A program made the position numbers and the translations under genes. Positions 5,768 to 56,648 of a stretch of 64,000 bases of DNA are shown here, in pieces. The DNA is taken from contig CAYNGY010000001.1 of the NCBI GenBank assembly GCA_964397195.1, positions 134,586-198,585 on the forward strand, written 5' to 3'. The stretch comes from an uncultured Gammaproteobacteria bacterium. Lineage in GTDB: Bacteria; Patescibacteriota; Patescibacteriia; SBBC01; CAIJZX01. Each line of letters starts with the position of its first letter. The first letter of the stretch is position 1. The notes under the pieces were generated by a model. The model saw nothing but the letters and a program-made list of their open reading frames with translations, was not told where the DNA came from and did not search any database.

Positions 5768-5842
5768 TGGGGTGGCCAACGGGGATCGAACCCGTGATAA
5801 AGGCTCCACAAGCCTCTGTGTTACCACTACACCATGGCCACC
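5768..5842 (-). tRNA. tRNA-His (anticodon GTG), with encoded G-1 and CCA
   Basis: The reverse complement folds as G-1 + GTGGCCA/TGGCCAC acceptor, discriminator C73 pairing with G-1, D-stem GTGT/ACAC, anticodon loop TTGTGGA, T-arm ACGGG-TTCGATC-CCCGT and a 3' CCACCCCA end like E. coli tRNA-His. Confidence 0.9.
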
Positions 5843-5934
5843 ATGGTCGGAATGAAGTGTCTCAGCAGTGTTCCCGCGTTGTGAGGACGGAAAAACAGGC
5901 AACTTCAGCGAGAATATACGGGGAAATACTCACG

Positions 5935-5963
5935 TTGTCAATAGAATAGCAGCCTGTTAGGAT
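5935..5963 (+). promoter_or_regulatory. Candidate sigma70-type promoter for tRNA-Arg(TCT)
   Basis: ttgtca (5935-5940), 17-nt spacer, taggat (5958-5963); about 60 nt upstream of the tRNA. Confidence 0.3.
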
Positions 5964-6026
5964 GCAAAGGACGCCCGAAATGTCTGTGCGTCAGGCTCGA
6001 CGCATGTCCCGCCCGATTCGCCTCGT

Positions 6027-6101
6027 GGCCCCGTAGCACAACGGATAGTGCAGGGGACTTCTAAGCCCAAGATGTAGGTTCGACTCCTACCGGGGCCACC
6101 A
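6027..6101 (+). tRNA. tRNA-Arg (anticodon TCT), CCA encoded; atypical anticodon stem
   Basis: Acceptor GGCCCCG/CGGGGCC, D-arm GCAC-AACGGATA-GTGC, anticodon loop CTTCTAA (identical to the E. coli argU loop), T-arm GTAGG-TTCGACT-CCTAC, discriminator A. The anticodon stem GGGGA/GCCCA has only 3 central G-C pairs, with 27:43 G.A and 31:39 A.G mismatches. Confidence 0.75.
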
Positions 6102-20397: not shown

Positions 20398-20427
20398 TTG
20401 CCTAAGGGGCGAAAATATTGGTATGCT
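20398..20427 (+). promoter_or_regulatory. Candidate promoter of leuS, giving a short leader without a Shine-Dalgarno sequence
   Basis: ttgcct (20398-20403), 18-nt spacer, tatgct (20422-20427); about 20 nt before the leuS ATG. Confidence 0.35.
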
Positions 20428-20447
20428 CATACTCTTACCGATACGAT

Positions 20448-25994: not shown

Positions 25995-26831
25995 ATGGGT
26001 TGGGCCGGTCGAGTTACAAAAACGAGTGCTGATACGCTCGTCAAAATAGCATCTGGGGAGCAGCCGATTCGAGCGCTCGACGAGTCCAAAACAGCTTTTC
26101 GGATTGTGATTGGCATTTCGGCCATCACCATTCTCACCACCGGTGTATTTATGTGGCGCCTGATCGTCAATTCCGCCAAGCTGCCGGTCGCCAAGAAATC
26201 GAACACGAATGTCTCGTCGACGCTCGTGGCGCTCAAGGAAAAAGATACCGACGCCGACGGGCTCAACGACTACGAAGAGCTCTACGTCTACGGCAGCAGT
26301 CCATATCTCTTTTCATCAGCCAGTGATGGCGTTGCCGATGGTGAAAAAGTAAAGCAGGGTGTTAATCCAAATTGTCAGATCGGAAAATCATGTACAGTTC
26401 CGACGCTGACCGTTGGTACCAACTCCAACGGTGATACGAATAGTTCCGTCAGTGTCAGCTTCCTTCGTCAGGCCCTCGTCGCTTCTGGTGCCTCTGCCTC
26501 GGTAGTCCAAGCGGCTGATGACGCGACCATTCTTGAAATGTACGAGCAAGCAACGCAAAACGGTTCCAGCACAAACACCAACACCGCGGTGACCAACACG
26601 TCTACCACCAACACGAGTACAACGGGGAACACGAATGTGGCCAGCAACGCCAACTCGACGGTCACGAATACCTCGGACACGAGCAGCCTGACATACGCCG
26701 ATCTCGAATCTCTGTCCGGTGCCGAAATTCGTTCGTTACTGACCTCATACGGTATCGACGCTTCAAACCTCACGCAGGTTGATGACGCAACGCTCAAAGC
26801 AATTTTTTCCGAAGCCATTTCCGGCAACTAG
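25995..26831 (+). CDS. Membrane-anchored/secreted protein with a thrombospondin-type-3-like Ca-binding motif and a Thr/Asn/Ser-rich tract
   Basis: N-terminal TM (FRIVIGISAITILTTGVFMW), DTDADGLNDYEE, and low-complexity NTNTAVTNTSTTNTSTTGNTNVASNANSTVTNTS. Confidence 0.7.
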   Translation: MGWAGRVTKTSADTLVKIASGEQPIRALDESKTAFRIVIGISAITILTTGVFMWRLIVNSAKLPVAKKSNTNVSSTLVALKEKDTDADGLNDYEELYVYGSSPYLFSSASDGVADGEKVKQGVNPNCQIGKSCTVPTLTVGTNSNGDTNSSVSVSFLRQALVASGASASVVQAADDATILEMYEQATQNGSSTNTNTAVTNTSTTNTSTTGNTNVASNANSTVTNTSDTSSLTYADLESLSGAEIRSLLTSYGIDASNLTQVDDATLKAIFSEAISGN

Positions 26832-26837
26832 ATTTTC

Positions 26838-29800
26838 ATGACTAAAACACGACGAGTTTTACGGAAACCAGTCATCGCCTTCATCGTTGGGGTGATTGCG
26901 CTTTCGTCGTTCAACGCCCAGCCGGTACGCGCATTATTTTTTATCCCTGAGGTAACCTTCAGCACGACAGTCCAAGATATTCCACGCTCGGTATCTGAGG
27001 CGGTGACGAAAGCGACCGATGCGGTTAAGGCCCGAGTCAAAGACTCAATCGCCATCGCCTTTAAGCAGGCGGCTCGTCAATTCCTTGGGAATGCCGTGCA
27101 ACAAATGGCACTCTCGCTTGCGACCACCCAGCCCGGACAGCTGCCACTTTTCTTACAAAGTCCGCGCACGTACCTCCGTGACGTGGCCGATGCGGCCGCC
27201 GGTGATTTCATCGACGGGTTTACCAAAGGTGTGACCGGCAGTTCGCAGTGTACCAGCCCCGACCCGGTCGTTCGTCAGCGCTGTCTCGAACAAACCGGCA
27301 CGACCGGCGGGAGCGATCCGACCAGTGGTCAACGTGGGCGATTTATCATCTCCCGTCTTTTGCGCGCCGGTTCCGACGCGACGTACCAAGCCTGTCTCCA
27401 AGGGGCACAGGAAAAGCATGGTATCGGGGACGCAAAAAAACTGACACTGACGTCGGTCCCGACCAACTCGATTACCAGCCTTGAAGACATGGATCGCTGG
27501 GGGAAATATACCAACGACTACCAGCGCGGGGTGGCGCTGCTGCTCAGCTTCAAAAAGTACTATCTCGACGTAGCCATTGCTTCCGGTGATCGGGAGATTA
27601 ACTGTATGCACGTCGCGCCACGGCCGGACGTGTCGACCGATCTACAGTGGGACATCGCGCCGGAAGCGTGTGTTGACTCGCCGTGCATGGTGACGCCGAC
27701 CGAGTGTTTGGCGCATGTCCAAGATGCCATCAACTACAACATCGCCGCCTCGCAAAAAGAAGAACAGGACGCACGGACGCAATGTAAGACCGGGCTGGGC
27801 GGTGACGTTCGAAATTATGTCACTCAAGCGACGGCGACCGATGTCTTCGCGGCCGCGGACAACTTTGATATTCGCACCTCGCCGAAACTCATTTCGGCGC
27901 GATTTCAGAATAATAGCGACATCAGTCAGTACTTCCAGGCCGCTGCGCTGTTAACATCGTCGGTCCAGTCAAAGTTGACTGGTGAGGATACCTATCTTAA
28001 TTCCGGGCTCCTGCCGCGGACCTCACGAGTCGGTGACAAAACGCTTGCCCCAAAAGAAGCGGCCTCGGCCCTCTTCGGTATTCCGTTCTACAACAACAAC
28101 GGTGAGTTAACGTATACCGGGACTGGCGCCGCCGACATTATTCGTGGCCTGGCGTCATTTGTGAACAGCCCGGTTGGAAAAGCACTCTTTACGTATTTCC
28201 GAAGCCAGTGTGGCTTGAACCCGAACGCCTGTAAGGGGCCGACGAATACGCAATCAGAAATTGGACGGATGCTCTTTGGTACTGGTGGGGCGACCGGGAT
28301 TGCGGCGGCGCAAGTCCAGTATGCCTCGATCGGTCAAACCGACACTATTACCGGTAGTCCGGGGAAAAATGACATTGATATCCTCGGCCAGCTGACCTCC
28401 TCGGGGATTATTGACCAAGCATTGCGCACCGCCGTCGACGAAGGTCTGACGGTCCAAGAAGCGCTGGACCGGAATTTGCTGAGCAAGAAGAAAATTGTTG
28501 GATTTGATCGGAATGGGATCGAGCCGACAAATGGCTATCCGTACCGGACGCTCCAATATCTCCGCAAGTACCGAATTATTTCGGTCGGGTGGGAACTCGC
28601 GGCGAAGTATGCCTATCAGTTTGCCTCCAATGAGCTCACCCTAGACACGCTAACGAAACAATATAGTCTCTGCGCCCAAGATACTGCCCATAAAGTCTGT
28701 TCTGACTCTCTCGTTGCCTGCACCGATTCGAGTCAATGTAATCAAGACGACGGTGAAACCTGCGGCGCGTCACCATACTGTGGCCTCGTCGATCCAAACT
28801 GGGTCCTGAAAGCACCGCAAACATTTTGCCGACGTCAGGGGGCGGGCGAAGAAATAGTCACCAAGGAATTTGTGTGTGACGTCAATAACGTCGACAAGAC
28901 TACCGGCGATGTTATTCCGACTGGCACGGTCTGCGACGACGGGACAAACGCGAATGCGGTCTGCCACGACACCGCCGCGCCGAACTGTGTTGAGAACGAG
29001 GACAACAATCAGTTTCCAGACATCGGACGCTGGGTTATTTCCCGCAACACCGACACCTGTGCCGATAGTCAATCATGTTTGGCTGAAGATGAAGACGGGA
29101 CATGTCTAGCCTATGGGTACTGCGTGCAAGAGCGTCAGACATTCAAATTTGGTGGGACGTCCTGCGAGGCTCAGAATATCAGCTGTACATCCTATACTGA
29201 TTCCTCCGGGGCAGCCGTCTCATACTTAGCAAAAAACCTCGACACGAATTGTAACGCCGACGATGTCGGATGTCAGTGGTACTGCGCCAAGCCGAGTTAT
29301 AATGACACCAATAAGCAGTGGCAGTGCACGGCGACCACCGGAACAAAAGTTCACCTAACCGCCAAGGCTGACGATTGTAAGGCCGGTGACGCTGGCTGTC
29401 GTCAGTTTATTCGTCTGACGCCGGGCACGAACTTCCTGCAAAATGGCGGCTTCGAATACTATAACGGGAATCGGATTGATGTCGATCCGGCCACCTTTAA
29501 TGGCTGGACCGCACCGGTGGCTCGCCTCACGCCAATCACGTCTACCGACAGCGACAACACGGTTGGCAACACCGTTGCCGCCCGGGCACAATTTACCCTG
29601 GCCTCGGACACGATCCGACAGACGGTGAACATCGGTGCATCCCCGAACGGTCGGGTTTTCACTTTCTCCCTTCGCGCACAAGCGGCGACCAGTTGTTCGG
29701 CGGAAATCACCCTTTGCACCGGGAGCGATTGCCAAACATCGGCCGTCCACCCGAGCGCCACGTTTACGGCGACACCGAGTTGGGAAACGTATGCGGTGAC

Positions 29801-32486
29801 CATGGCTGTCCCGAGCGCCGATATCACGCCGATCAGTTCAACGCTACTCACGGCGGTCATCCGTCCGGATGGTTGTCATGATGCTGGATTTGCGGTCGAC
29901 AGCGCTCAGGTCAAAGAGTCGAGCGAGACCTCAACCTTCAGCGAATACGGCACGACCAATGTTGTCCATCTGAACGGTCAACGCCGTACGTGTGAGGCGG
30001 CCGATATTGGGTGCGAACGGTACACTCCAGTGGCGGGTGGCGCCGTGGTCAACGGTATTCTCGCCTCGGAAAATCTGTGCACCCGCGATCAGGTCGGCTG
30101 TCAACAATACGAGCGTCAACCGATTACCTCGGTTCCGTATCGTGACGCACGTCCGAATCAACCCGCAACGGGCGTTGATGTCACGATTGTCGCCGCCCAA
30201 GGAAAGCTCTGCTCGGCAGCGGAAGTCGGCTGTGAAGAATATACCAACCTCGACGCGGTCAAAGCCGGTGGCGAGGGGAAAGAGTATTACCAAACGGCGC
30301 GACAGTGTGTACCAACCACATCAACGGTGGCGAAAAAAACCTATTACACATGGATTGGTGATCCGGAAAAAGGATTTGTCCTGCAATCCCAGCAACTCGT
30401 GGTCTCGAATTTGAATGGTGGTCCATGTGCCCAGATGGGACTTGGTCGAAGTGATGGTACGCTACCGACCTGCCGCGATACGGCCGCTACAATCAATGCA
30501 GCCGCTTGTCTTCAGGGCGACCTCGCGTCTGACCCGGATTGTGCGGAGTTCTATGATTCCGATCTGAACGTCTACTACATGCATCGCTCGGCGACTGTCC
30601 CGGTCAGTGCCGACTGTCATCCGTATCGAAATACAATCGACAGCACCGAGCCAACGTGTCAGGCGGGTCTCTGCTCAAGCGGTGGCTTCGCTGGCCAAGC
30701 ATGCTCGGCTGACAACGACTGCCGCAACGGCGTCTACTACATGGCCAAGAAGCAAAACACCTCGTGTTCTGCTGCTGCCGCTGGCTGTCGCGAATTCATT
30801 GGGAATAGCGGCCGGGCCTCACGACAGATTTTCCAGGACACGATGGAGAAGTCGAGCCTCTCGAACTGGGTCGGTGGATCGTGGAGCGCATCTTCTCCAA
30901 ACGCTTCCGGTCACTCCATCCGTATCGATCCGCCAAATAGTTCCACCAAGGGCGTGGCCTTTACCGTTACCAGCGCCTTGAAGGGGAAGGTGGCGACTGG
31001 AAAATCGTATCTTCTGACTGTCACCGCCGCGGCGGCCACGCCGGGTGATGATATTCGGTTGCGAGCCTTCTTCGGTCGCGGGAACGATGTCAGCGGCTCG
31101 TTCGATGAGCTCGGGGGTGTCGCCTTCCAGCAAAATGCGGGTGCCCAGCTAGTGTGGAACGAATCCATTACGCCGGCCGGCCCCGAGTGGCATTCATACA
31201 CGCTTGGTCCGATTTCTCTTTCCAACGCGGTCGATCCGGACTGGCGCCTCGGCCTCGTGGTTGAGGGTGGCTCAGGGTATGTCGACAATGTGAAGCTGAC
31301 TGAGATTAATGATCGAACGTACGTCGTCAATAATTCTGCGCCGCTCTGTCCGGCTTCCGCCATTGGCTGTCAGGCTTACCGTGATCGCGCCGGGTCGTTA
31401 AACTACGCCACTTCATTCGCCCGACTCTGTAATGATAAAGTTGTCGGTTGTGAAGCGATGATTGACACACAAAACAGCACCACGCCGTTCGAGCAAACGG
31501 TCAAAGGTGTGACGACGCCGGCCGATCGAATCGTAACCGTAGTGAATGATAGCGCCAATTACTGCAACGCCAGCGCGAAAGCCTGTGAAATGGTGGGCGA
31601 GCCGGTCTATGGCCGCGATGACACCATTGCGAGTTTCAAAACCGTGTATAAGATCATTGATCCAGACCAATTCTCGACGGATCTGTGCTCAGCTGAAGCG
31701 GTGAGTTGTGAGGCGTATACGACACAAGAAGGGACAACCGTTTACTTCAAGGACCCACGCGGGCGGACCTGCGAGTACCGGAGTGGCGGTTCCATCACCG
31801 GCGGCTGGTTCATTACCGGTACCTCCTATCGGTGTCCAACAGTGACGCCGCCAACCGTCAGTCAACCAATTGGTGCATCATGTACACCGGTCTGTGCCGG
31901 CGGAACGCGGGACGGGAAAGCGTGCAAAACGGTTGGATCGTCAGCTGAGTGTCCGGGAAGCCCGGCGGGTGTTTGCACGGGGAATGCCGCTACGACCGGA
32001 AAGATAGTGGTCGATGGGAATCCCGTTGTCGGTTCGTGTACGACTGATACGCAGTGTGGAACGAACAAGTGTCGATACTTGGTTGGGGTGTGTCCGAGCA
32101 CCGAAAACGGATGCACGGAATACCGTGACCCGACCGAGCCCGTGAATTGTCGTGCTGAATGTCCACTTGAGTTGATGGGCGGTACTCCATTGTATGTCGA
32201 CGCGAGCTGTACGAAAACGGTTTGCGCGAGCTCGGACCCGGCCAACAAGCGGATCGGTCAAAACTGCCAAACCAGTGATCAGTGTACATATGCCGGTATC
32301 CCGGGAACGTGTGTCGGAGCTGATAATAATGTGACGACCGGGGCGCCGGGCTGTCGCGCCTATACCTTAATTCGGCAATCGGTTGAAGACACCGCCAGCG
32401 ATTGTAATGGTCAGATTAATACCGCCACCGGCTGCCGGCCGTTCTATGATACGTCGAATTCGTCCCTTAACTTCCGCGGCCAATGA
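26838..32486 (+). CDS. Giant (1882 aa) secreted/surface protein with at least 13 copies of a C-x4-5-[GAS]-C-x2-[YF] cysteine repeat
   Basis: N-terminal signal-anchor MTKTRRVLRKPVIAFIVGVIALSSF. Repeats include CNADDVGCQWY, CKAGDAGCRQF, CEAADIGCERY, CTRDQVGCQQY, CSAAEVGCEEY, CSAAAAGCREF, CPASAIGCQAY, CNDKVVGCEAM, CNASAKACEMV, CSAEAVSCEAY and CPSTENGCTEY, spanning 29.06-32.45 kb. Confidence 0.85.
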   Translation: MTKTRRVLRKPVIAFIVGVIALSSFNAQPVRALFFIPEVTFSTTVQDIPRSVSEAVTKATDAVKARVKDSIAIAFKQAARQFLGNAVQQMALSLATTQPGQLPLFLQSPRTYLRDVADAAAGDFIDGFTKGVTGSSQCTSPDPVVRQRCLEQTGTTGGSDPTSGQRGRFIISRLLRAGSDATYQACLQGAQEKHGIGDAKKLTLTSVPTNSITSLEDMDRWGKYTNDYQRGVALLLSFKKYYLDVAIASGDREINCMHVAPRPDVSTDLQWDIAPEACVDSPCMVTPTECLAHVQDAINYNIAASQKEEQDARTQCKTGLGGDVRNYVTQATATDVFAAADNFDIRTSPKLISARFQNNSDISQYFQAAALLTSSVQSKLTGEDTYLNSGLLPRTSRVGDKTLAPKEAASALFGIPFYNNNGELTYTGTGAADIIRGLASFVNSPVGKALFTYFRSQCGLNPNACKGPTNTQSEIGRMLFGTGGATGIAAAQVQYASIGQTDTITGSPGKNDIDILGQLTSSGIIDQALRTAVDEGLTVQEALDRNLLSKKKIVGFDRNGIEPTNGYPYRTLQYLRKYRIISVGWELAAKYAYQFASNELTLDTLTKQYSLCAQDTAHKVCSDSLVACTDSSQCNQDDGETCGASPYCGLVDPNWVLKAPQTFCRRQGAGEEIVTKEFVCDVNNVDKTTGDVIPTGTVCDDGTNANAVCHDTAAPNCVENEDNNQFPDIGRWVISRNTDTCADSQSCLAEDEDGTCLAYGYCVQERQTFKFGGTSCEAQNISCTSYTDSSGAAVSYLAKNLDTNCNADDVGCQWYCAKPSYNDTNKQWQCTATTGTKVHLTAKADDCKAGDAGCRQFIRLTPGTNFLQNGGFEYYNGNRIDVDPATFNGWTAPVARLTPITSTDSDNTVGNTVAARAQFTLASDTIRQTVNIGASPNGRVFTFSLRAQAATSCSAEITLCTGSDCQTSAVHPSATFTATPSWETYAVTMAVPSADITPISSTLLTAVIRPDGCHDAGFAVDSAQVKESSETSTFSEYGTTNVVHLNGQRRTCEAADIGCERYTPVAGGAVVNGILASENLCTRDQVGCQQYERQPITSVPYRDARPNQPATGVDVTIVAAQGKLCSAAEVGCEEYTNLDAVKAGGEGKEYYQTARQCVPTTSTVAKKTYYTWIGDPEKGFVLQSQQLVVSNLNGGPCAQMGLGRSDGTLPTCRDTAATINAAACLQGDLASDPDCAEFYDSDLNVYYMHRSATVPVSADCHPYRNTIDSTEPTCQAGLCSSGGFAGQACSADNDCRNGVYYMAKKQNTSCSAAAAGCREFIGNSGRASRQIFQDTMEKSSLSNWVGGSWSASSPNASGHSIRIDPPNSSTKGVAFTVTSALKGKVATGKSYLLTVTAAAATPGDDIRLRAFFGRGNDVSGSFDELGGVAFQQNAGAQLVWNESITPAGPEWHSYTLGPISLSNAVDPDWRLGLVVEGGSGYVDNVKLTEINDRTYVVNNSAPLCPASAIGCQAYRDRAGSLNYATSFARLCNDKVVGCEAMIDTQNSTTPFEQTVKGVTTPADRIVTVVNDSANYCNASAKACEMVGEPVYGRDDTIASFKTVYKIIDPDQFSTDLCSAEAVSCEAYTTQEGTTVYFKDPRGRTCEYRSGGSITGGWFITGTSYRCPTVTPPTVSQPIGASCTPVCAGGTRDGKACKTVGSSAECPGSPAGVCTGNAATTGKIVVDGNPVVGSCTTDTQCGTNKCRYLVGVCPSTENGCTEYRDPTEPVNCRAECPLELMGGTPLYVDASCTKTVCASSDPANKRIGQNCQTSDQCTYAGIPGTCVGADNNVTTGAPGCRAYTLIRQSVEDTASDCNGQINTATGCRPFYDTSNSSLNFRGQ

Positions 32487-36742: not shown

Positions 36743-36749
36743 CTCGCTC

Positions 36750-48224: not shown

Positions 48225-49706
48225 ATGGAAGATATTTGGCAACAATTTCATCGACTCCCGAAGGTGATTCGGGATGCAGTAGCCTCTCCTGAGGCGCTGA
48301 CTGCGATTAATCGGATAGAAGCAGCTCACCCAGGCCTCGATTTGGCCGGTTTTGTGATGCGGGTAATGGTTCGTGAGCTGTCGGTCGAGCATCTTCCCGC
48401 AGAACTGATGAAGGCGGGAAATCTTGATGAATCCGCCGCGAAAGACGTAGTCGAAGATTTGACCGTAACGGTGTTCCGTACCGTTAGTGAATACCTAGGT
48501 CTCGCACCGGTAAAACCAGCTAGCGCCACGGCAGTCACTCCGAAGGCCACTCCGCCTATCACGACCCCGGTGACCGAAAACCCGCCGACCATGACACCAC
48601 GTGTTGCCCCTGCTCCGCCGAATGTCCCACTGGCCTCGCCGTCTCCCGTCCAAGCTGCGCCATCGTCGCCGCTAGCCCAGCCGAATGTACCCATCGGCAA
48701 CATCTCCCCGGCGCCAACACTTTCGACCGAGGATGACGCCGAAATTGCCGCGCATTCCGAAAAACTCCGCGCCATGACGTCCGCCGTCGGGCCGGCTGAT
48801 TTTGATACCATCGCCCAGTCCATTCTTGACCAGCACCATCTCGCCTTCCAAGATGACTTGTTGACCAAGCGCGCCGTTGCGGTAATCAAAGCCCGATTGA
48901 AGGGAATCCGCTCGAATGACGACACGAAAGCCATGCTGATGCGACCTCCGAAAGTCGGCGGTCTCGGTCTTGATGGAGACATCGTGACCGCTGTCATGCG
49001 CACAATTGAAGATCAAGCCTCACACGCTCATGCGCAGGGCATGACAGCCCGACCGGCCGCACCGGTTCCGCCGCCCCCACCACGAGTCCCGGCCCCGCAA
49101 ACACAAGTCCCGGCCGCAATCCCACCGTTGACCCGTGATTTTTCGACCATGAAACCCGATCAGCCGAGCGCTTCGGTAACAGAACAGCCGCGGGCGAGCC
49201 GACCAATCATTCGCCCGGTCGATATTCCGCCGCCACCAGCCATGCCAACCGCCGCGCCGGCCACCCCGGCTAAGCCGAAAGCCGTGCCAATCCCGGTTGC
49301 TGTTCCGACGCCAGCTCCAGCGGTCCAACGAGCTCGCGGCTCAGATCGTCCGTCTGTGTCGGATATCACCCTCCCGACGACCACGCTCGGACCGGCGGAA
49401 GAGATGCAGAGCTTCACCCTAGCGCAATTTCGACGTCTCGGGCAAGGTGCGGCCGAATCGGCAAAAAAGATACTGGATAAATTAAAGCATTTAGAAGAAG
49501 AATCTTTTTCGCTCTGGGCCGAAGCGGTCGCTGGATGGCGTCAGAGCGAGGTGTATTCCCTCTACCTTGATATGGGACGCCAGTGTCTCGATCAGAATAT
49601 TTCCATCGATCAGGTTATCCAGCGTCGCGCGAGCGCCGGTCAACTCTATCTATCAGAACATGAGTTCAATGTGCTCGCCGACATGAATCGTCAGCTCCAA
49701 CTCTAG
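48225..49706 (+). CDS. Pro/Ala-rich hypothetical protein (493 aa)
   Basis: A central PPITTPVTENPPTMTPRVAPAPPNVPLASPSPVQAAP... low-complexity region between ordered N- and C-terminal segments. A VirB10/TrbI-like role is only speculation. Confidence 0.7.
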   Translation: MEDIWQQFHRLPKVIRDAVASPEALTAINRIEAAHPGLDLAGFVMRVMVRELSVEHLPAELMKAGNLDESAAKDVVEDLTVTVFRTVSEYLGLAPVKPASATAVTPKATPPITTPVTENPPTMTPRVAPAPPNVPLASPSPVQAAPSSPLAQPNVPIGNISPAPTLSTEDDAEIAAHSEKLRAMTSAVGPADFDTIAQSILDQHHLAFQDDLLTKRAVAVIKARLKGIRSNDDTKAMLMRPPKVGGLGLDGDIVTAVMRTIEDQASHAHAQGMTARPAAPVPPPPPRVPAPQTQVPAAIPPLTRDFSTMKPDQPSASVTEQPRASRPIIRPVDIPPPPAMPTAAPATPAKPKAVPIPVAVPTPAPAVQRARGSDRPSVSDITLPTTTLGPAEEMQSFTLAQFRRLGQGAAESAKKILDKLKHLEEESFSLWAEAVAGWRQSEVYSLYLDMGRQCLDQNISIDQVIQRRASAGQLYLSEHEFNVLADMNRQLQL

Positions 49707-49707
49707 T

Positions 49708-50220
49708 ATGGCCACCCAGTTTACTGTTCCACAATTCACGAATGAGCCGGATAAGATCATCGGTCCGATCGTTGTTCGGCAATTCATCATCCTGCTCGTC
49801 GGTGCCGGGCTGGTGGTTGGGGCCTATCAGCTTTTTTATCGACTGATAAACTCGTCGGTTGGGTTTCTTTTCTCGGCGGTAATCATTTTAAGTCTGACGG
49901 CGGCTTTCGCCTTCATTCGAGTTAACGGTCGCCCGTTTCATCTTTTTATCTTGAATGTGATTGAGTCGTTACGCGTGCCGTCGATGCGTCTCTGGAACAA
50001 CATGGCAGCCGAGCGAATTCAGTACCGCCGTGAACCGCCGCCGCCGGCTCCGCCGCCGACAAAAGCCCCGCTCGTGCAAACGAATTTGGCCCGCCTAGCT
50101 ATGTTAGTGGATACCGGCGGAGCGTTCCACGAAGATGAGGATATCCTCTACTGGGGTGAGACATTACCGAAAGCTACTCGCCAAGCCGAGGTGCTTACCA
50201 ATCAGGTTGATCGCGAATAA
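49708..50220 (+). CDS. PrgI/VirB3-like small two-TM membrane protein
   Basis: 170 aa. Two adjacent hydrophobic helices (IVVRQFIILLVGAGLVVGAY / VGFLFSAVIILSLTAAFAFI). It sits immediately upstream of the VirB4 gene, as in Gram-positive T4SS. Confidence 0.55.
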   Translation: MATQFTVPQFTNEPDKIIGPIVVRQFIILLVGAGLVVGAYQLFYRLINSSVGFLFSAVIILSLTAAFAFIRVNGRPFHLFILNVIESLRVPSMRLWNNMAAERIQYRREPPPPAPPPTKAPLVQTNLARLAMLVDTGGAFHEDEDILYWGETLPKATRQAEVLTNQVDRE

Positions 50221-50226
50221 TTCCGT

Positions 50227-50952
50227 ATGGCCACACCGTCACAAAAAACGCCCCCACGACCGAAAAAAGTTGCGCCTTCAACGCAGCAGTATTTGGATAT
50301 CATGGAAATTCGCGACGATGCTGTAGTGATGAAGAACGGCGGATTAGTAGCGGTGCTCCTCGTGTCGTCAATCAATTTCTCGCTCAAATCAGAAGAAGAA
50401 CAAGAAGCGGTGATTGGGGCGTACGTCTCGTTCCTGAATACCATCGATTTTCCGCTTCAAATCGTCATCCAGTCCCGTCGCCTCGATATTGATGCCTATC
50501 TTGAAGTCCTCAAAGGTGTCGAGAAACAACAAACGAACGAACTGCTCAAGACGCAGACACAGGATTATCGTCGCTTTGTGAACGAGCTCGTGCAGATGAA
50601 CGCGATTATGTCGAAGCGTTTCTATGTGGTCATTCCTTTTTCACCAAAAGTAGATCGTCCGGGCAAATTCTTTAGCCGCCTGCTCGATGCCTTTGCGCCG
50701 ACGGAAACTATTCATTTGAAACAGAAGCAGTTTGAAAAATACCGCCTTGAATTATTTAAGCGGGTCGATAACGTCATGAACGCGCTATCGGCGGCCGGAC
50801 TCCAGTCACAGCCCTTACGGACGCAGGAACTGATCGAGCTGTACTACAATTCCTATAATCCCGAAACTGCCCGTCAAGAAAAACTCGACGACGTCCGAAA
50901 ATTGTCTTTAGAGGAAGTGTCATCTATCAAGCCCGACAATGCCCGAAGTTAA
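50227..50952 (+). CDS. VirB4/TrsE N-terminal domain encoded as a separate ORF
   Basis: YLDIMEIRDDAVVMKNGGLVAVLLVSSINFSLKSEEEQEAVIGAYVSFLNTIDFPLQIVIQ resembles the N-terminal (CagE/TrbE) region of VirB4. Its stop overlaps the ATG of the ATPase ORF by 14 nt, a +1 frame change. Confidence 0.6.
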   Translation: MATPSQKTPPRPKKVAPSTQQYLDIMEIRDDAVVMKNGGLVAVLLVSSINFSLKSEEEQEAVIGAYVSFLNTIDFPLQIVIQSRRLDIDAYLEVLKGVEKQQTNELLKTQTQDYRRFVNELVQMNAIMSKRFYVVIPFSPKVDRPGKFFSRLLDAFAPTETIHLKQKQFEKYRLELFKRVDNVMNALSAAGLQSQPLRTQELIELYYNSYNPETARQEKLDDVRKLSLEEVSSIKPDNARS

Positions 50953-52861
50953 TCTCTTCCGCCCAAACGAATTCCGTAGCGCCCCCCAAGCGAGTGGTGG
51001 TGGCACGACCCCAAAACTCCCCGAGGACGAGCGGGAGCTCCTTGAGGCTGAGCGCATCTACCGCCAAGGCGTCGTTCGAGAACTCGATCTTATCGCCCCG
51101 GCCGCCTTTAAGGTTGACCCGAGATTTCTGATGCTCAACGGTCGCTACGTTCGGACGCTCTTCGTTATTTCCTATCCGCGATACATCTCCGTTGGCTGGT
51201 TCGCGCCAATCATTAATTATAGCGCTCCGTTAGATGTCTCGATGTTCTTCTACCCGATTCCCTCGGACATCATCCTGAGGCAGTTAAAAAATAAGGTCGG
51301 CGCCCTCGAAGCCCAGCTGATTACTGACCAGGAAAAAGGCGCCCCGCGTGATCCGATGCGTGAAACAGCGCTTCGTGATATCGAAAAACTCCGCGACGAT
51401 TTAACGCAGGGGACCGAGAAGTATTTCCAGTTCGCCCTTTATGTTTCCTTTTACGCGGATTCGCTCAAAGAACTGGACGAACTGACAAACCGTATGGAGG
51501 CCCTCTTCGGCTCTCGTCTCGTGTACTCAAAGCGCTCCTTTTTCCAGTCCGAGCAGGGATTCACCTCAACCATGCCGCTTGGCCTTGATCGGCTTCAGGT
51601 CGCGTTCAACATGAACTCGTCCCCAATCGCCTCAAGTTTTCCGTTTATGTCGGCGGACCTGTCGAGTGATAATGGGATTTTGTACGGTATCAACCGTCAT
51701 AATAACTCGCTTATTCTCTTCGACCGTTTCTCCCTGCCAAACCCAAACTATACCGTCTTCGCTACCGCCGGTGCCGGTAAGTCATTCGCCGTCAAGTTAG
51801 AAATTATTCGGTCGATGATGTTCGGGACTGATATTATCGTCGTCGATCCGGAGCATGAATATAAATATCTATCTGATGCGGTCGGCGGGACGTATATTAA
51901 TATCTCCCTGAACTCCGATACGAAGATTAATCCCTTTGATCTCCCGCGCGGGATTGGCGGCGATGAAACCCCGGCCGATATTATTCGGTCCGCGGTTATT
52001 ACGCTCAAGTCCATGTTGCGCCTGATGCTGGGCGACGTGACTCATGAGGAAGATTCTATCCTCGATCGGGCGCTCCTCGAAACCTACGCCAAGAAAGATA
52101 TTACGCCGGATGCGGACTTAGCGAATATCGAGCCGCCCGTCATGTCAGATTTTCAAGAAGTATTGAGCGGTATGACCGGCGCCGAGAGTCTAGCGGAACG
52201 GTTGAAAAAATATACCGAAGGTACGTTCTCGGGGCTTTTTAACAGTCGGACGAACATTGAGCTGAACAATCAACTCGTCGTCTTCTCGGTCCGCGATCTT
52301 GAGGATGAACTTCGCCCAATCGGGATTTCGATTATTATTTCTTATATTTGGAATATCGCTCGTTCGCAGCTCAAGCGCCGCATTCTCGTCATTGATGAAG
52401 CGTGGTGGTTAATGCAACATGAAGACTCGGCAAAATTCGTTTACGGCCTCGTAAAACGATCGCGGAAATATTATCTGGGCGTTACGACGATTACCCAAGA
52501 CGTGAATGATTTCTTGCTCAGTCCATATGGTCAGGCCATCATCAATAACTCAGCACTTCGGCTGCTGATGAAACAATCGCCGGCGGCGATTGAGATTGTT
52601 ACCAAAACCTTCCTCCTGACCCAACAAGAACGGTATTTGTTACTTGAGGCGGGCGTCGGCGAGGGAATCTTCTTCGCCGGTACAAAACATGCCTACATGC
52701 AAGTCGTCGCCTCGCCGACAGAAAATCAGATCGTCACGACGAATCCAGAAGAGGTACTTCGCTTGGAAGAAGCGAAGCGCGAATTTGAAGACTCAATTGC
52801 CTCTGGGACGGCGACGAATGCCGGAGCGGCCGTCACCAACCCCGAAGATTTAACATCATAA
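50939..52861 (+). CDS. VirB4/TraC/TrsE-family type IV secretion ATPase (C-terminal ATPase portion)
   Basis: Walker A FATAGAGKSFAVK at about 51.77 kb, Walker B ILVIDEAWWLM at about 52.39 kb, and characteristic YISVGWF..., LDRLQVAFNMNS and GVTTITQD blocks. Confidence 0.9.
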   Translation: MPEVNLFRPNEFRSAPQASGGGTTPKLPEDERELLEAERIYRQGVVRELDLIAPAAFKVDPRFLMLNGRYVRTLFVISYPRYISVGWFAPIINYSAPLDVSMFFYPIPSDIILRQLKNKVGALEAQLITDQEKGAPRDPMRETALRDIEKLRDDLTQGTEKYFQFALYVSFYADSLKELDELTNRMEALFGSRLVYSKRSFFQSEQGFTSTMPLGLDRLQVAFNMNSSPIASSFPFMSADLSSDNGILYGINRHNNSLILFDRFSLPNPNYTVFATAGAGKSFAVKLEIIRSMMFGTDIIVVDPEHEYKYLSDAVGGTYINISLNSDTKINPFDLPRGIGGDETPADIIRSAVITLKSMLRLMLGDVTHEEDSILDRALLETYAKKDITPDADLANIEPPVMSDFQEVLSGMTGAESLAERLKKYTEGTFSGLFNSRTNIELNNQLVVFSVRDLEDELRPIGISIIISYIWNIARSQLKRRILVIDEAWWLMQHEDSAKFVYGLVKRSRKYYLGVTTITQDVNDFLLSPYGQAIINNSALRLLMKQSPAAIEIVTKTFLLTQQERYLLLEAGVGEGIFFAGTKHAYMQVVASPTENQIVTTNPEEVLRLEEAKREFEDSIASGTATNAGAAVTNPEDLTS

Positions 52862-52864
52862 CTC

Positions 52865-53419
52865 GTGCGTCGGTATCTCCTCATCTCCATCATCGGACTT
52901 CTCGCCATCGTCATTATCGGCGGCGGCGTCATACTGTTGGTTGACCGGACGCCCGCTCTACAAAATGCGATCAATGGGGAAAAAAATAATTCGATCATCA
53001 ATACCGCGATTGTGACAAACACGGCGAATACGAACACGAAGCCGAACACGGACAAAGCCGATGTGCTTCTTGTCGCCCGGGTTTTTACGGAACGGTACGG
53101 AACCGGATCGAGTGACGACGCGTTTGCCGGGTACCTGGCAGCCGTACCATATGCCACGACCGCGCTCGGTAATCAACTTGAGGCGAATGTTCGGGCGCAG
53201 AAACCAGCCACCGATGTCAATTATCGAGGTTTCGTAACGCACGTCGTGTCCTTAACGATCGATCAAGCGTCGTCCACGGTCGCCACCGTTCGAGTCGGAA
53301 CCCAGCGTACCGAGACAATTGCCACGACGGCCAAACAATATAATCAATCCATCACGCTGCTGGTAGTGAAGGAGTCAACCGGGTGGAAGGTCTCCTCCGC
53401 GCAGTGGCAGGCGCTCTAA
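52865..53419 (+). CDS. Membrane-anchored periplasmic protein, VirB8-like / NTF2-like fold candidate
   Basis: N-terminal TM (LLISIIGLLAIVIIGGGVILLV) followed by a roughly 150-aa domain with an alternating beta-strand pattern (VVSLTIDQASSTVATVRVGTQRTETIATTAKQYNQSITLLVVKESTGWKV). Confidence 0.5.
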   Translation: MRRYLLISIIGLLAIVIIGGGVILLVDRTPALQNAINGEKNNSIINTAIVTNTANTNTKPNTDKADVLLVARVFTERYGTGSSDDAFAGYLAAVPYATTALGNQLEANVRAQKPATDVNYRGFVTHVVSLTIDQASSTVATVRVGTQRTETIATTAKQYNQSITLLVVKESTGWKVSSAQWQAL

Positions 53420-53420
53420 T

Positions 53421-54263
53421 ATGGCCGATGCTATGTCAGTCACAATGACGCCAGAAGAACGCGCGAACAGTGCGGCCTGGGCCAAGGCGCGATTGCAGCA
53501 ACTGAAATCAACGCGTCGTGGTGCGGCGCGTACGGAATATGCCAGTGCCCTGAACGCCGACACGGCGGCGGGTCGTGATGCCTACCAGCGTAACGTCGGG
53601 ACGCCAATGCAGTCGGGGATTAATCGACAACTTAACCGGCTCCCGTCGTCAGTACGAAGCGTGGTCCAACCGTTTGCCGATCAGTATCTGCAAGCCCAAG
53701 AAAATTTGAATGATCGCCGATTGCGTGTTGGGGCGGCTACCCAAGCGTTGATGGCGAACGGCGAGCTGGCTCAAACGGCGGCCGCCCGATCGGCCCGCGC
53801 CGCGACACTCCGCGGCCTACGGAAGGCCGCTCGAGGTGAGGCTAGTCCTACTGAGGCGGAGAATGAAGCCCTAGCGAGTATTCAGCCCTTGGCCGAACAG
53901 GCGTGGGCCCGTTTGTGGGACATTCTTCAGTCGACCTTAGCCGCGCTGGGCACGGCATTTTGGGGGGTACTATCGACGGTCACACTCGTCCCAGTAGTCG
54001 CTGTCTTTTTTGCCAGACTCCTTGGTCGCATGTCATTCCGTATCGGTTTTCGGGGCGCTAAAGTCCATTTCGTGTCACCATATTCCGGTGCGGGGATGAT
54101 GACCCATGTGGTCAGCCTCCTGATGAATGTCGGCTGGGCTATCATATGGCTATCGGTCATGATTTTCCTGGTCTATCTCTATATTGAAGCCCAAGACAAA
54201 GTGTGTTGGGCGAGTTGGGTTGTCAATTTTTTCCGCGCTGGTTTTTGTCCATCCTCATCATGA
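53421..54263 (+). CDS. Hypothetical membrane protein (280 aa) with a C-terminal multi-TM region
   Basis: Soluble Ala/Arg-rich N-terminal half, then the hydrophobic helices LAALGTAFWGVLSTVTLVPVVAVFF and WAIIWLSVMIFLVYLYI. Confidence 0.65.
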   Translation: MADAMSVTMTPEERANSAAWAKARLQQLKSTRRGAARTEYASALNADTAAGRDAYQRNVGTPMQSGINRQLNRLPSSVRSVVQPFADQYLQAQENLNDRRLRVGAATQALMANGELAQTAAARSARAATLRGLRKAARGEASPTEAENEALASIQPLAEQAWARLWDILQSTLAALGTAFWGVLSTVTLVPVVAVFFARLLGRMSFRIGFRGAKVHFVSPYSGAGMMTHVVSLLMNVGWAIIWLSVMIFLVYLYIEAQDKVCWASWVVNFFRAGFCPSSS

Positions 54264-55399
54264 TACAGAAGGTGTTTCTACCGCTGGTTGTTGGACTTAC
54301 CCTGATCGGGGCATCGTTTGTATTTGTGCCTAGCCCGGTGCATGCGGTCGATGTCACCAAAGAAAAGCAGTACTTTATCCCTGACATCATCCTGCCGGGA
54401 CAGTTTGAGCGCGTGGAGATCGATAGTAGCCTGATGTCGAAGTACTTCCGGGCACTGTACGTCTACATGGTCTACATCGTCAGCATTATTGCGGTGGTGA
54501 TGATTATCTATGGTGGTTTGAAATGGGTCGCGGCGGCCGGAAATTCCGCCCAAATTAATGATGCGAAAGACGTGATAACTAATGCGGTTATCGCTATCGT
54601 GATCGGCCTGACCTCATATGTTTTGCTGTACGTCATCAATCCAAAACTCCTAAATCTGTCCTTACCACTCGGCGACACCGTCACCCAACACGCTCTCGGC
54701 ACACTCTGGAATGAGCAATTGGGCTGTTTTGAACAGTTAAGCTGTCCGCCGGGGTCAACACAAGTTCTTGGAGCAACGTGTGGGAGCAACTACACGACCG
54801 TAAATCCGGGTGAAAATGCCTGTACAGCGGCGGCTGCCGGCGGGAAAGGGATTTGTTGTCAGGCGGGTGATAAGTGTTATCGGTACTCTGCCTACGATGG
54901 GTCGCTTACCTCGAAGCTGCCGTATACCTGTAGTGCGGTCGATTCCGGCGATGAGTCGAAACGCCCATATTGTAAAGACGCGACGCCGTGTGGGACAACG
55001 ACGAAAGACTGCAGTGGTCTGACCTGTGGCGGTGGAAACAGTTGCTTGCTCATGTTTGTGAAGGAGCCGGACGGGTACAAAAACCGCTCCAAGTGTGTGA
55101 CCAGCAATGGCCTAGTAACCGAGAATGCCCTCAGCTGTGCCTCGGCATTATCCGGTGTCGATACGAAATTCACGATTCAGACCGATGCGAATCGAAACTG
55201 TGGGTGGGCGGCAAAAGGGGAAAGGTATTTGCACGCCGGGACCGATCCGCGTACCTGTTCAGCCGATCAAGTGTGTGTCATCATCCCGCCGAATATCTAT
55301 ACATCGGCCGAAGGAAAGGACATGTGTGTCTATCGTCAAACCGATGCGCAAGGGCTTGTCTATGACCCGATGCCATCCAAATGCATAACTATCCGCTAA
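54260..55399 (+). CDS. Pilin-like (TrbC/VirB2-like) two-helix module fused to a C-terminal disulfide-rich domain of about 230 aa (24 Cys)
   Basis: Start set at Met 54260 (MIQKVFLPLVVGLTLIGASFVFVPSPVHA signal). The module YMVYIVSIIAVVMIIYGGLKWVAAAGNSAQINDAKDVITNAVIAIVIGLTSYVLLYVINPKLLNL is shared with two paralogs. Confidence 0.7.
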   Translation: MIQKVFLPLVVGLTLIGASFVFVPSPVHAVDVTKEKQYFIPDIILPGQFERVEIDSSLMSKYFRALYVYMVYIVSIIAVVMIIYGGLKWVAAAGNSAQINDAKDVITNAVIAIVIGLTSYVLLYVINPKLLNLSLPLGDTVTQHALGTLWNEQLGCFEQLSCPPGSTQVLGATCGSNYTTVNPGENACTAAAAGGKGICCQAGDKCYRYSAYDGSLTSKLPYTCSAVDSGDESKRPYCKDATPCGTTTKDCSGLTCGGGNSCLLMFVKEPDGYKNRSKCVTSNGLVTENALSCASALSGVDTKFTIQTDANRNCGWAAKGERYLHAGTDPRTCSADQVCVIIPPNIYTSAEGKDMCVYRQTDAQGLVYDPMPSKCITIR

Positions 55400-55403
55400 G
55401 TGT

Positions 55404-56648
55404 ATGAATGAACGTCTCAAGCGCGCGTTGATCATCACTGGGTTTGTTTTAGTTGTCATTGGGATGTTCGTGGTGATTTATTTTGTGTTCTTTCGTTCCA
55501 CTGACCAACTGAACGGAAACACGAACCAGCCGGGCAATATCAATGGTCTGCCGAACGCGAACAACGGAAACCGTAATGCCTCGACAGGTAGTAATGTAAA
55601 CAGTCTGCCAGTCACAAATACCTCGGCGTCTGGCCCGAGTAAATATGCTGATGGAGGCGCGACCTTGGTTGAAACGGTCGTCAACACGCCGGTCGCCGGT
55701 CAAACCGTCAGCAACACCGGGAGTTTACAATACTACGATCGCCAAACCGGAAAGTTCTTCCAAGTTTCCGCCGATGGGATGTCAACCAAGGTGATGACGG
55801 ATGCGATCTACAAGGATCTCGATACTGTCACCTGGGATCCATCCGGCACGAAAGCCATCCTCCAATTTCCGGACGGGTCGAAGGTTCTCTATAACTTCGC
55901 CACCAAGAAACAGTCGACCCTACCGCGGGAACTCGATAATTTCTCATTCTCACCAACGGGCAGCCAAATTGTTTCGAAATATCTTGATGCCAAACATCTC
56001 GACAACCAGTGGCTGATGGTTTCAAACCCGGATGGCACCGGTTCACAATCAGTTGAACAACTCGCCGAGAATGCCGATAAGGTCATTGCTGCGTGGTCAC
56101 CCAACAATGCGGTGGTTGGCACCTACGAACGATCGTCGACGAGTAGTTCATCCGATATTATTTTCCTCGGGAAAAACAATGAAAATTACCCACTCGTCAC
56201 AGTTGACGGGAAAGGTTTTACGCCAAACTGGTCACCGGATGGATCGAAGATTCTCTATAGCGTCTACAGCGACGACACAAACAACGCCGCTCACCTCTAT
56301 ATTATGAATGGCGATGTTAACACCTTAGGGCAAAATATCATCGATCTCAATCTGAACACGAGCGCCAATAAATGTGCGTTCTCGCAGGACAATTACACTA
56401 TCTACTGCGCTGTTCCGTACTACACGGTGGAGAACTCGGGACCGATACCTTCGCTCGGGTATAGTGTTCCGGACAATCTCTATGCCATTGATATGCTCCG
56501 TGGGACGACGACCCTTCTCGCCCGGCCGGTGGATGAGCACAGTCTCCAGCAGTATTCGGTCGGGAGCATTCGACTCTCCGGTGATGAGTCGGCTATATAC
56601 TTTACGGACGCTAATACCGGCAAGCTTCATCGGATCTTGCTCCCATGA
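55404..56648 (+). CDS. Membrane-anchored TolB-like (PD40/WD40-like beta-propeller) protein
   Basis: N-terminal TM (ALIITGFVLVVIGMFVVIYFVFF). Repeated PD40-like blades WDPSGTKAILQFPDGS, FSPTGSQIVSKYLD, WSPNNAVVG and WSPDGSKILYS. Confidence 0.75.
   Translation: MNERLKRALIITGFVLVVIGMFVVIYFVFFRSTDQLNGNTNQPGNINGLPNANNGNRNASTGSNVNSLPVTNTSASGPSKYADGGATLVETVVNTPVAGQTVSNTGSLQYYDRQTGKFFQVSADGMSTKVMTDAIYKDLDTVTWDPSGTKAILQFPDGSKVLYNFATKKQSTLPRELDNFSFSPTGSQIVSKYLDAKHLDNQWLMVSNPDGTGSQSVEQLAENADKVIAAWSPNNAVVGTYERSSTSSSSDIIFLGKNNENYPLVTVDGKGFTPNWSPDGSKILYSVYSDDTNNAAHLYIMNGDVNTLGQNIIDLNLNTSANKCAFSQDNYTIYCAVPYYTVENSGPIPSLGYSVPDNLYAIDMLRGTTTLLARPVDEHSLQQYSVGSIRLSGDESAIYFTDANTGKLHRILLP

Follow-up and report, generated by a model that had tools for sequence, protein, structure and literature searches.

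A giant cysteine-loop protein in a Patescibacteria genome

The window analyzed here, the whole stretch of 64,000 nucleotides at positions 134,586 to 198,585 of contig CAYNGY010000001.1, holds on its forward strand an uninterrupted open reading frame (ORF) for a giant protein of 1882 amino acids (aa), which we call the Cys-loop protein after the two-cysteine repeat in its C-terminal part and which is identical to database protein P0001. A first-pass annotation had reported the ORF, which is indeed present, and had placed a new cysteine repeat at nucleotides (nt) 29059 to 32450, a range that corresponds to aa 741 to 1870, the Cys-rich part of the protein. The ORF, its repeat copies, two predicted carbohydrate-binding modules (CBMs), and the neighboring genes, among them those of a type IV secretion system (T4SS), are listed in Table 1.

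Cysteine makes up 4.5% of the protein (85/1882) and 5.85% of aa 601 to 1882, values below the 7% given earlier. There are 13 His residues, none of them within or beside the Cys loops, and CxxC, CxC, and CxxCH motifs are lacking throughout the 1882 aa, so that heme-type and CxxC redox motifs were rejected. At the N terminus, basic residues precede a hydrophobic stretch of 17 aa, the one place where Kyte-Doolittle hydropathy averaged over 19 aa exceeds 1.6. This N terminus is plausibly a signal peptide or membrane anchor, with the protein being exported. The C terminus reads LNFRGQ and is conserved; an LPxTG-type sorting signal ([LIV]Px[TSA]G) has no match anywhere in the protein.

Table 1. Features of the Cys-loop protein and of its gene neighborhood (window coordinates)
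Feature	Position (nt)	Strand	Details	Basis
Giant Cys-loop protein ORF	26838..32486	+	1882 aa, uninterrupted; 85 Cys	
Putative signal peptide or membrane anchor	26838..26936	+	N terminus; MTKTRRVLRKPVIAFIVGVIALSSFNAQPVRA	Read from sequence; hydropathy
N-terminal orphan region	26937..29042	+	aa 34-735	Pfam and PDB searches, 46 diverse members
Four-Cys mini-domain	29043..29147	+	aa 736-770; C741-x5-C747-x8-C756-x5-C762	Cys conservation
Three-loop module T1	29148..29417	+	aa 771-860	Motif scan, HHalign
T1 loops	29163-29195; 29250-29282; 29376-29408	+	aa 776-786; 805-815; 847-857	
Predicted CBM4/9/22-like beta-sandwich 1 (CBM1)	29418..29957	+	aa 861-1040	AlphaFold2, Foldseek, profile match
Three-loop module T2	29958..30257	+	aa 1041-1140	Motif scan, HHalign
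T2 loops	29991-30023; 30078-30110; 30210-30242	+	starting at aa 1052; 1081; 1125	
Conserved middle region	30258..30737	+	aa 1141-1300; invariant C1157, C1235, C1260	Conservation; pLDDT <50
Single Cys loop	30738..30812	+	loop at aa 1310-1320 (nt 30765-30797), directly ahead of CBM2	Motif scan
Predicted CBM4/9/22-like beta-sandwich 2 (CBM2)	30813..31322	+	aa 1326-1495; CBM1 paralog	AlphaFold2, Foldseek, HHalign
Module T3 and fourth loop	31323..31757	+	aa 1496-1640	Motif scan, HHalign
T3-region loops	31347-31379; 31428-31460; 31563-31595; 31686-31718	+	starting at aa 1504; 1531; 1576; 1617	
Cys-rich C-terminal region	31758..32483	+	aa 1641-1882; 12th loop at aa 1752 (nt 32091-32123)	
Upstream partner gene	25995..26831	+	278 aa; transmembrane segment and TSP3-like motif DTDADGLNDYEE	Upstream in 71 loci
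g1419	32483-36742	+	1419 aa; BNR/fn3	Weak signals
g1824	36675-42149	+	1824 aa; fn3	Weak signals
g1668	42152-47158	+	1668 aa	
Type IV secretion-like module	48225..57877	+	includes a 493-aa protein	Pfam above gathering thresholds
PrgI/VirB3-like protein	49708-50220	+		PrgI, 35.9 bits
VirB4/TraG ATPase	50939-52861	+		TraG P-loop/VirB4, 102 bits
Two T4SS_pilin proteins	54203-55399; 56645-57877	+		27.7 and 29.5 bits
RadA	57881-59239		after the T4SS module	
RecG	59241-61310	opposite		

Twelve copies of a two-cysteine loop

A regular-expression scan with C-x5-[GAS]-C-x2-[YFMV] found 12 copies of the repeat, 10 of which fit the strict [YF] form. The spacing of the two Cys is C-x6-C throughout, neighboring copies lie 27 to 205 aa apart, and the unit consensus is C-[SPT]-A-x-x-[VA]-G-C-x-x-[YF]-[TR]-[DN], with flanks that carry little information. 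Three kinds of shuffle rule out chance or composition as the source of the motif: 5000 shuffles of the whole protein gave a mean of 0.13 strict and 0.28 loose matches (maximum, 2 to 3), against the 10 and 12 observed; adjacent C-x6-C pairs in aa 601 to 1882 number 15, compared with 3.1 expected (shuffle maximum, 11); and when the Cys positions were held fixed, the combination of [GAS] at +6 and [YF] at +10 occurred in 10 of these 15 pairs, compared with 0.29 expected (maximum, 4). A hidden Markov model (HMM) of the repeat, built from 781 copies of the family, gives each of the 12 copies 9 to 22 bits and finds no match outside the Cys-loop ORF among the six-frame ORFs of the window.

Every one of the 11 motif strings listed in the first-pass annotation lies where it had been placed, and the repetition is real and more frequent than under shuffling; the number of copies, put at 13 or more, comes down to 12. 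One copy, CEAQNISCTSY at aa 776, had been overlooked, and the two "degenerate" copies near the C terminus (GC1839RAY and GC1866RPFY) are not repeats: they score about 0 bits against the repeat HMM, and their Cys have partners elsewhere, C1839 covarying with C1791 (phi, 0.93) and C1866 with C1856 (phi, 0.92; a C-x9-C loop). The C-x4-5-[GAS]-C spacing holds in its x5 form, with no x4 variant among the copies of the window protein, and the distance between copies, described as about 40 to 200 aa, has a lower minimum than that.

The motif also lies outside the repeats defined in the curated libraries searched. No Pfam-A or NCBIfam model covers the copies: for the window protein, Pfam-A (2025 copy) at an E value of ≤10 returned only a chance match, At5g52880_ARM at aa 576 to 636, and NCBIfam 20.0, which includes TIGRFAM, returned 0 families. 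Models of EGF, TNFR, furin-like, GCC2_GCC3, and Myxococcus Cys-rich repeats had no match in the Pfam or NCBIfam scans, in keeping with the dissimilarity to EGF, TNFR, furin-like, and CXXCH motifs stated in the annotation; the unit has 2 Cys and no CxxC. Searches of PDB profiles with the unit and with the three-loop module described below gave matches at chance level only. We found no description of the repeat or the family in the literature and no public name recorded for the protein; both are undescribed in the papers on which we draw below (PMC12102498, PMC10633639, PMC12857230, PMC4736985, PMC7906910, and bioRxiv 10.1101/335083). As far as they reach, these searches support the earlier statement that the repeat was previously unrecognized.

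Conservation of the loops and probable pairing of their cysteines

All 24 loop Cys are invariant among ten close homologs, and in a 55-sequence alignment reaching ~27% identity each motif Cys is either invariant or conserved in 90% or more of the sequences. When the C-terminal region was aligned across 187 nonidentical homologs, down to ~25% identity, both Cys were kept in 185 to 187 of the sequences for 11 of the 12 copies, and the first Cys (Cys1) was kept in 187/187 at all 12 aligned positions. The four Cys of the mini-domain at aa 736 to 770 are likewise each conserved in at least 99% of the 187.

The remaining copy, at aa 1081, bears on how the Cys are paired. In 82 of the 187 sequences the Cys at +7 of this copy is replaced by Y or F and another Cys appears at +4 (CPAECVGY), with Cys1 invariant. 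Since the second Cys moves inside the loop while the rest stays fixed, the two Cys of one copy would appear to belong together, which argues for pairing of the loop Cys within their own copy. Variable Cys elsewhere in the protein come and go as local pairs (816/830, phi of 0.99; 612/648, 0.95; 1696/1705, 0.92; 1856/1866, 0.92; further covarying pairs are 1796/1810 and 1791/1839), the behavior that would be expected of disulfides; the Cys of the C-terminal region (aa 1641 to 1882) other than the loop Cys are of this variable, paired kind.

The same data bear on two other ways in which the loop Cys might be used. They might bond between loops or between molecules, cross-linking copies of the protein or its giant neighbors into a covalent lattice or fiber. 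The odd Cys count (85), the four giant Cys-containing neighbors that are cotranscribed, and the invariance of the loop Cys, which leaves their partners unassignable by covariation, would agree with such cross-linking; we nevertheless hold it to be very improbable, given that the second Cys of copy 1081 shifts within its loop while all other possible partner columns stay fixed and that the giant neighbors are without the motif.

Alternatively, the Cys pairs might be metal ligands, two C-x6-C loops that are close in space holding the scaffold together through a shared Cys4 site for Zn or Fe. Candidate partners are the loops flanking each CBM or the first and second (A and B) loops, whose spacing is constant at 27 to 29 aa. 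An even number of copies (12) allows pairing two by two, with Cys1 present in every homolog, and each inserted CBM domain has a loop on either side. The C-x3-C spacing in the variant form of copy 1081 resembles metal knuckles more than disulfide loops, the absolute invariance of the loop Cys suits ligands as well as structural disulfides, and metal sites would suit an anoxic habitat. Against this, the number of loops per module is odd (three); no His, Asp, or Glu that could serve as a ligand is conserved near the loops, the protein having few His overall; and the variable Cys are gained and lost strictly as nearby pairs, in a disulfide-like manner. Moreover, the protein is plausibly exported, and bacteria of the candidate phyla radiation (CPR) encode MdbA/VKOR. 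We know of no zinc-knuckle geometry that corresponds to C-x6-C with Gly before the second Cys. On balance, we regard metal binding by the loops as unlikely.

Three-loop modules and two CBM-like domains

Residues 765 to 870, 1040 to 1145, and 1495 to 1600 align in register (HHalign probability, 95 to 96%; E values, 1e-8 to 1e-9), with six Cys invariant across the alignment. Judged by this alignment, nine of the 12 copies form three paralogous three-loop modules of ~100 aa (T1, T2, and T3). The copies outside the modules are a fourth loop following T3 (aa 1617) and single loops at aa 1310 and 1752.

Two further domains are inserted between the loops, CBM1 being bracketed directly by loops 847 and 1052 and CBM2 by loops 1310 and 1504. 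An AlphaFold2 model of aa 700 to 1882 (1183 aa; 10 sequences) has a mean predicted local distance difference test score (pLDDT) of 48.9 and is usable only at the CBMs, where it contains confident beta-sandwiches at about aa 869 to 1029 and 1329 to 1489 (pLDDT of 70 to 89 in CBM1 and 66 to 91 in CBM2). Foldseek matched them to PDB entries 4xuo_A (TM score, 0.66; CBM22), 4xup_E (0.69), and 1gui_A (0.57; CBM4), each with a probability of 1.0. The family profile matches the CBM4 structure 1gui_A with an E value of 0.0036, and Pfam CBM_4_9 (PF02018), the only Pfam family found on ten homologs, matches 6 of the 10 (best E value, 1.9e-9) at places between Cys-loop copies. HHalign relates CBM1 to CBM2 with a probability of 93%. 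The two inter-repeat domains are thereby confidently predicted to be beta-sandwiches of the CBM4/9/22 type. The likeness to CBM4, CBM9, and CBM22 (PF02018; 1gui, 4xuo) lies in the fold and concerns the inter-repeat domains (aa ~861 to 1040 and ~1326 to 1495), not the repeat; unlike the usual members of these families, the domains of the window protein have no recognizable glycoside hydrolase attached, and each is bracketed by Cys loops.

Sequence covariation within the modules was of little use for assigning contacts. In mean-field direct coupling analysis of 498 module copies, the Cys-Cys couplings were artifacts of invariant columns and the signal was dominated by paralog classes, and the result was rejected. 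When mutual information was calculated per class, a single pair recurred, formed by positions -7 and +10 at loop C (z, 3.1 to 5.4).

These results modify the structural picture drawn in the first-pass annotation, in which each copy was a disulfide-stapled hairpin inserted between beta-rich segments of a surface protein. Location at the surface is plausible, given the N-terminal signal or anchor and the lack of any other hydrophobic segment. Insertion between beta-rich segments holds for the four copies that directly bracket the two predicted CBM4/22-type beta-sandwiches. As for the hairpin, pairing within a copy is favored by the relocated Cys and the local Cys pairs, whereas the AlphaFold pLDDT of 22 to 45 and the flank covariation, at the random level, lend the hairpin no support. 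Of the three approaches that the annotation had proposed, an HMM search uncovered a large family, AlphaFold gave no confident model of the loops, and covariation could not be read because the loop Cys are invariant. The annotation had missed the higher-order grouping of loops into three-loop modules, the CBM domains, the invariance across the family, and the position near type IV secretion genes.

Conservation is unevenly distributed along the protein. The most conserved parts are the loop modules, the four-Cys mini-domain, and aa 561 to 700, with 38 to 52% identity to distant members, and the most divergent are the CBMs (24 to 26%) and the first 340 aa (23%). Measured by these identities, the scaffold is conserved and the CBMs are fast-diverging. 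The top-conserved segment other than the Cys-containing parts, aa 561 to 700 (GYPYR..LRKYR..PVGWELA..LVDPNWVLKAPQTFC664RR), has 47% identity to distant members. Cys664 (nt 28827-28829), within this most conserved nonrepeat segment (LVDPNWVLKAPQTFCRRQGAGEE), is 98 to 100% conserved and has no covarying Cys partner; a thioester-like motif at this place, C664-x-x-Q667, was considered and dropped because Q667 is conserved among the closest relatives only.

Family range

Word-indexed searches yielded ten full-length homologs with 39 to 57% identity and two fused ones, together with one unrelated CBM protein. An exhaustive HMM search, in which a 33-column profile of the unit was run against 1.84 billion representatives, found 1072 proteins at an E value of ≤1e-3 and 733 at ≤1e-10, from which the family would comprise at least 733 clusters at 50% identity. 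The best 150 of the 1072 matches have 6 to 13 copies each. When these and the earlier finds were checked (160 proteins), nearly all carried the other regions of the family as well, the exceptions being short fragments and an unrelated Cohnella CBM protein (P0013). A mobile repeat spread over many architectures was therefore rejected, as nearly all of the checked matches belong to one family; as far as the best 150 of the 1072 matches indicate, the repeat marks one orthologous family and not a shuffled module.

A scan of one genome per GTDB species located 77 loci, nearly all in Patescibacteria, with titles that mostly name Candidatus (Ca.) Kerfeldbacteria and in a few cases Falkowbacteria or Uhrbacteria. 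By this sampling, the family is specific to Patescibacteria and found mostly in Ca. Kerfeldbacteria. Many of the locus-bearing records of metagenome-assembled genomes (L003, L006, L016, L017, and others) carry the title "uncultured Gammaproteobacteria bacterium," and the names "Pirellulales" and "Microgenomatus" each appear once; the first of these titles are probably placeholder names, and misbinning may lie behind the other two.

Gene neighborhood and type IV secretion genes

The Cys-loop gene belongs to a codirectional cluster composed of genes for leucyl-tRNA synthetase (LeuRS), Sua5, an MFS protein, KsgA, the 278-aa protein, the Cys-loop protein, g1419, g1824, g1668, small proteins, T4SS proteins, and RadA. 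The order Sua5, KsgA, small protein, Cys-loop protein, giant proteins is kept in essentially all 77 loci. The stop codon of the 278-aa gene precedes the start of the Cys-loop gene by 6 nt, and the start of g1419 overlaps its stop by 4 nt. The 278-aa gene is found directly upstream in 71 related loci, so that its product, with an acidic motif resembling thrombospondin type 3 repeats, may be called an obligate partner on the basis of gene order; TSP3_bac is a faint Pfam match on its homologs, the 278-aa protein itself having no above-threshold Pfam match.

The repeat HMM found no Cys-loop motif in g1419, g1824, or g1668. The Cys region and the homolog of g1824 are joined in one ORF of about 2400 to 4500 aa, a Rosetta-stone fusion, in 44 of 68 genomes; in the clade of the window the two are split, with g1419 inserted between them. 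g1419 and g1668 are tied to the Cys-loop protein by operon position only. The annotated ORFs of g1419 and g1824 overlap by 68 nt (36675-36742), and the TTG start of g1824 is uncertain. Homologs of g1668 in other lineages are ~1000 aa long and are followed by extra ORFs of ~440 to 490 aa.

Genes for VirB4, PrgI, and two T4SS_pilin proteins lie 16 to 25 kb downstream on the same strand as the Cys-loop gene and qualify as a monoderm-type T4SS locus. Among the loci whose sequence extends far enough, the window and six others (L021, L035, L055, L061, L074, and L081) have T4SS genes after the last of the giant genes. The Patescibacteria T4SS has been described as monoderm type with VirB2-like pilins, with KsgA encoded near its genes and, in class ABY1, also radA and recG (Quinonero-Coronel 2025, PMC12102498); RadA and RecG adjoin the T4SS genes of the window in the manner reported for that class. 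By position, the Cys-loop protein may be a component of the secretion apparatus.

Three side observations concern the neighborhood. The T4SS_pilin (VirB2-like) proteins are ~400 aa long, with the pilin domain confined to aa ~70 to 145; an ordinary VirB2 pilin is expected to be several times smaller. Leucyl-tRNA synthetase (20418-23279, forward strand) carries a NUDIX hydrolase domain at aa 391 to 516 (Pfam E value, 5.1e-11), after its editing-domain match at aa 231 to 376; at least 15 related loci have this insert in their LeuRS ORFs, and it is listed for L002, not for L001. A tyrosine recombinase (Phage_integrase, XerC/D-like) is encoded on the reverse strand at 9059-10021, ~3 kb from a divergent tRNA-His/tRNA-Arg pair (5768-6101).

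The N-terminal region and the gene order together raise the question of whether the protein is primarily an enzyme or a structural protein of the cell envelope, the loops being a stabilizing decoration. Its N-terminal 700 aa would then be a new catalytic domain, acting for example on polysaccharide of the host's or its own cell wall and targeted by the CBMs, and the adjacency of the T4SS genes would reflect the frozen gene order of a tiny genome, not function. CBM4/9/22 modules are usually appended to glycoside hydrolases. The PDB fold matches are CBMs of xylanases and laminarinases; aa 561 to 700 are as conserved as the loops and hold the invariant, partnerless Cys664; and the gene order is kept as strictly with respect to KsgA, Sua5, and LeuRS as with respect to the T4SS genes, which are not adjacent in L080. 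Yet searches against Pfam and PDB profiles with the N-terminal 740 aa of 46 diverse members found no relative and no catalytic family, the fusion with g1824 and the translational coupling with giant neighbors suggest a multiprotein surface structure, and a single-copy ortholog with giant partners is unlike typical secreted hydrolases. We judge a primarily enzymatic or envelope-structural role to be rather unlikely.

Discussion

Our results suggest that the Cys-loop protein is a disulfide-stapled surface scaffold that displays CBM-like glycan-binding modules for host contact, a reading to which we assign a probability of about 50%. Each motif would be the core of an eight-residue loop (Cys, six residues, Cys) whose two Cys most probably form a disulfide with each other; a short strand would follow, with the conserved aromatic residue at its start (C-x-x-[YF]-[TR]-[DN]). 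The giant protein, from a Ca. Kerfeldbacteria-like Patescibacterium of class ABY1, would carry 12 of these loops in its C-terminal 1100 aa and would presumably be exported by the Sec route and then either anchored by its N terminus or released. After export the loops might be oxidized by an MdbA/VKOR-type system, as CPR bacteria are enriched in MdbA-like oxidoreductase and VKOR (bioRxiv 10.1101/335083); the oxidized loops would stiffen the conserved scaffold, and on the cell surface the scaffold would expose two glycan-binding modules that evolve rapidly. The protein may work jointly with the fn3-bearing giant g1824, its fusion partner in most relatives, and its probable role would be contact with the host cell envelope beside the type IV secretion or pilus apparatus encoded downstream.

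Several observations weigh against this reading. With respect to the disulfides, the partners of the loop Cys are unreadable by covariation because these Cys never vary, the relocation argument is available from one copy only, and an odd Cys total (85) means that not all Cys can be in intramolecular disulfides. Oxidation itself may be questioned: the 64-kb window contains no oxidoreductase gene, and anoxic groundwater is the habitat of many such organisms. Structure prediction gave pLDDT values of 22 to 35 on all loop regions of the 1183-aa model, and an AlphaFold2 run on one module with a 29-row alignment of orthologs and paralogs gave a mean pLDDT of 45.5 and an unusable model. Pairing of the flanking strands was not significant, the pooled antiparallel ridge (i+j=3; 12 copies) being 0.15 compared with 0.17 in random-anchor controls. 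Sugar binding is a prediction for the CBM-like domains, and the window protein itself falls below every Pfam CBM threshold. The unannotated N-terminal 700 aa could hold the actual activity. Lastly, the most distant member, L080, has no T4SS genes within 10 kb downstream, and synteny with the housekeeping genes KsgA, Sua5, and LeuRS is equally tight, which makes gene order alone weak evidence of function.

Known systems resemble the Cys-loop protein in part. Extracellular proteins of large size and high Cys content, with a supposed role in attachment, have been described for Ca. Peribacter riflensis (Peregrinibacteria) (Anantharaman et al. 2016, PMC4736985). These are likewise giant (~1650 aa on average) proteins of a CPR bacterium that have a signal peptide, are Cys rich, allow few functional predictions (two are annotated as FG-GAP repeat and one as lactonase), and are encoded in clusters with genes for several such proteins, with a role in attachment proposed. 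Unlike the family described here, they belong to another phylum, have 7.2% Cys, vary between strains, and show a weak likeness to Myxococcus Cys-rich repeats, and no C-x6-C loop, three-loop module, CBM pair, or T4SS linkage has been described for them.

The repeat shares with EGF, TNFR, furin-like, GCC2_GCC3, and Myxococcus TIGR02232/DUF4215 repeats the general character of a short extracellular unit with fixed Cys spacing, a Gly/aromatic signature, and presumed disulfides. Those repeats, however, have 4 to 8 Cys per unit and form contiguous arrays, whereas the Cys-loop unit has 2 Cys and recurs at intervals long enough to accommodate whole domains.

In its genomic position the protein is comparable to the surface adhesins PrgB, PrgA, and PrgC of pCF10, which belong to a Gram-positive conjugative T4SS. 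In both cases a large exported protein shares its operon with VirB3-, VirB4-, and VirB6-like genes of a monoderm-type T4SS, and the Cys-loop protein may be an analog in function for making contact with a target cell. The likeness is positional only: there is no sequence or domain similarity, the LPxTG anchor and the polymer-adhesin or Ig-like Prg domains are lacking, and Pfam finds no Prg-type adhesin domains in the window protein. PrgB-like adhesins were not detected in the survey of Patescibacteria T4SSs (PMC12102498). In a Saccharibacterium, the one genetically tractable lineage, the T4SS is essential for epibiotic growth (PMC10633639, PMC12857230), and Ca. Kerfeldbacteria show notably strong physical attachment to their hosts (PMC7906910).

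If the loops are merely a stabilizing motif of another giant surface protein, the value of these findings lies chiefly in annotation. The family is absent from the curated domain libraries searched and can be recognized by a signature in which 12 invariant C-x6-C loops are combined with three modules of three loops each and with two CBM-like domains; it offers usable targets in the variable CBMs (for glycan or host binding), the module (for structure determination), and a repeat that can be annotated by HMM. The CPR accounts for a large share of bacterial diversity, its members living attached to other microbes, and their recognition of hosts is largely unexplained. A farther-reaching possibility, which we put forward tentatively and regard as doubtful, is that the three-loop module is a new extracellular fold and that the Cys-loop protein and its giant neighbors provide what the Patescibacteria T4SS/pilus otherwise lacks, a component for host contact or adhesion. 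They might thereby form a conserved surface organelle that reads the glycans of the host envelope through fast-evolving CBM-like modules and that could underlie the unusually strong attachment of Ca. Kerfeldbacteria.

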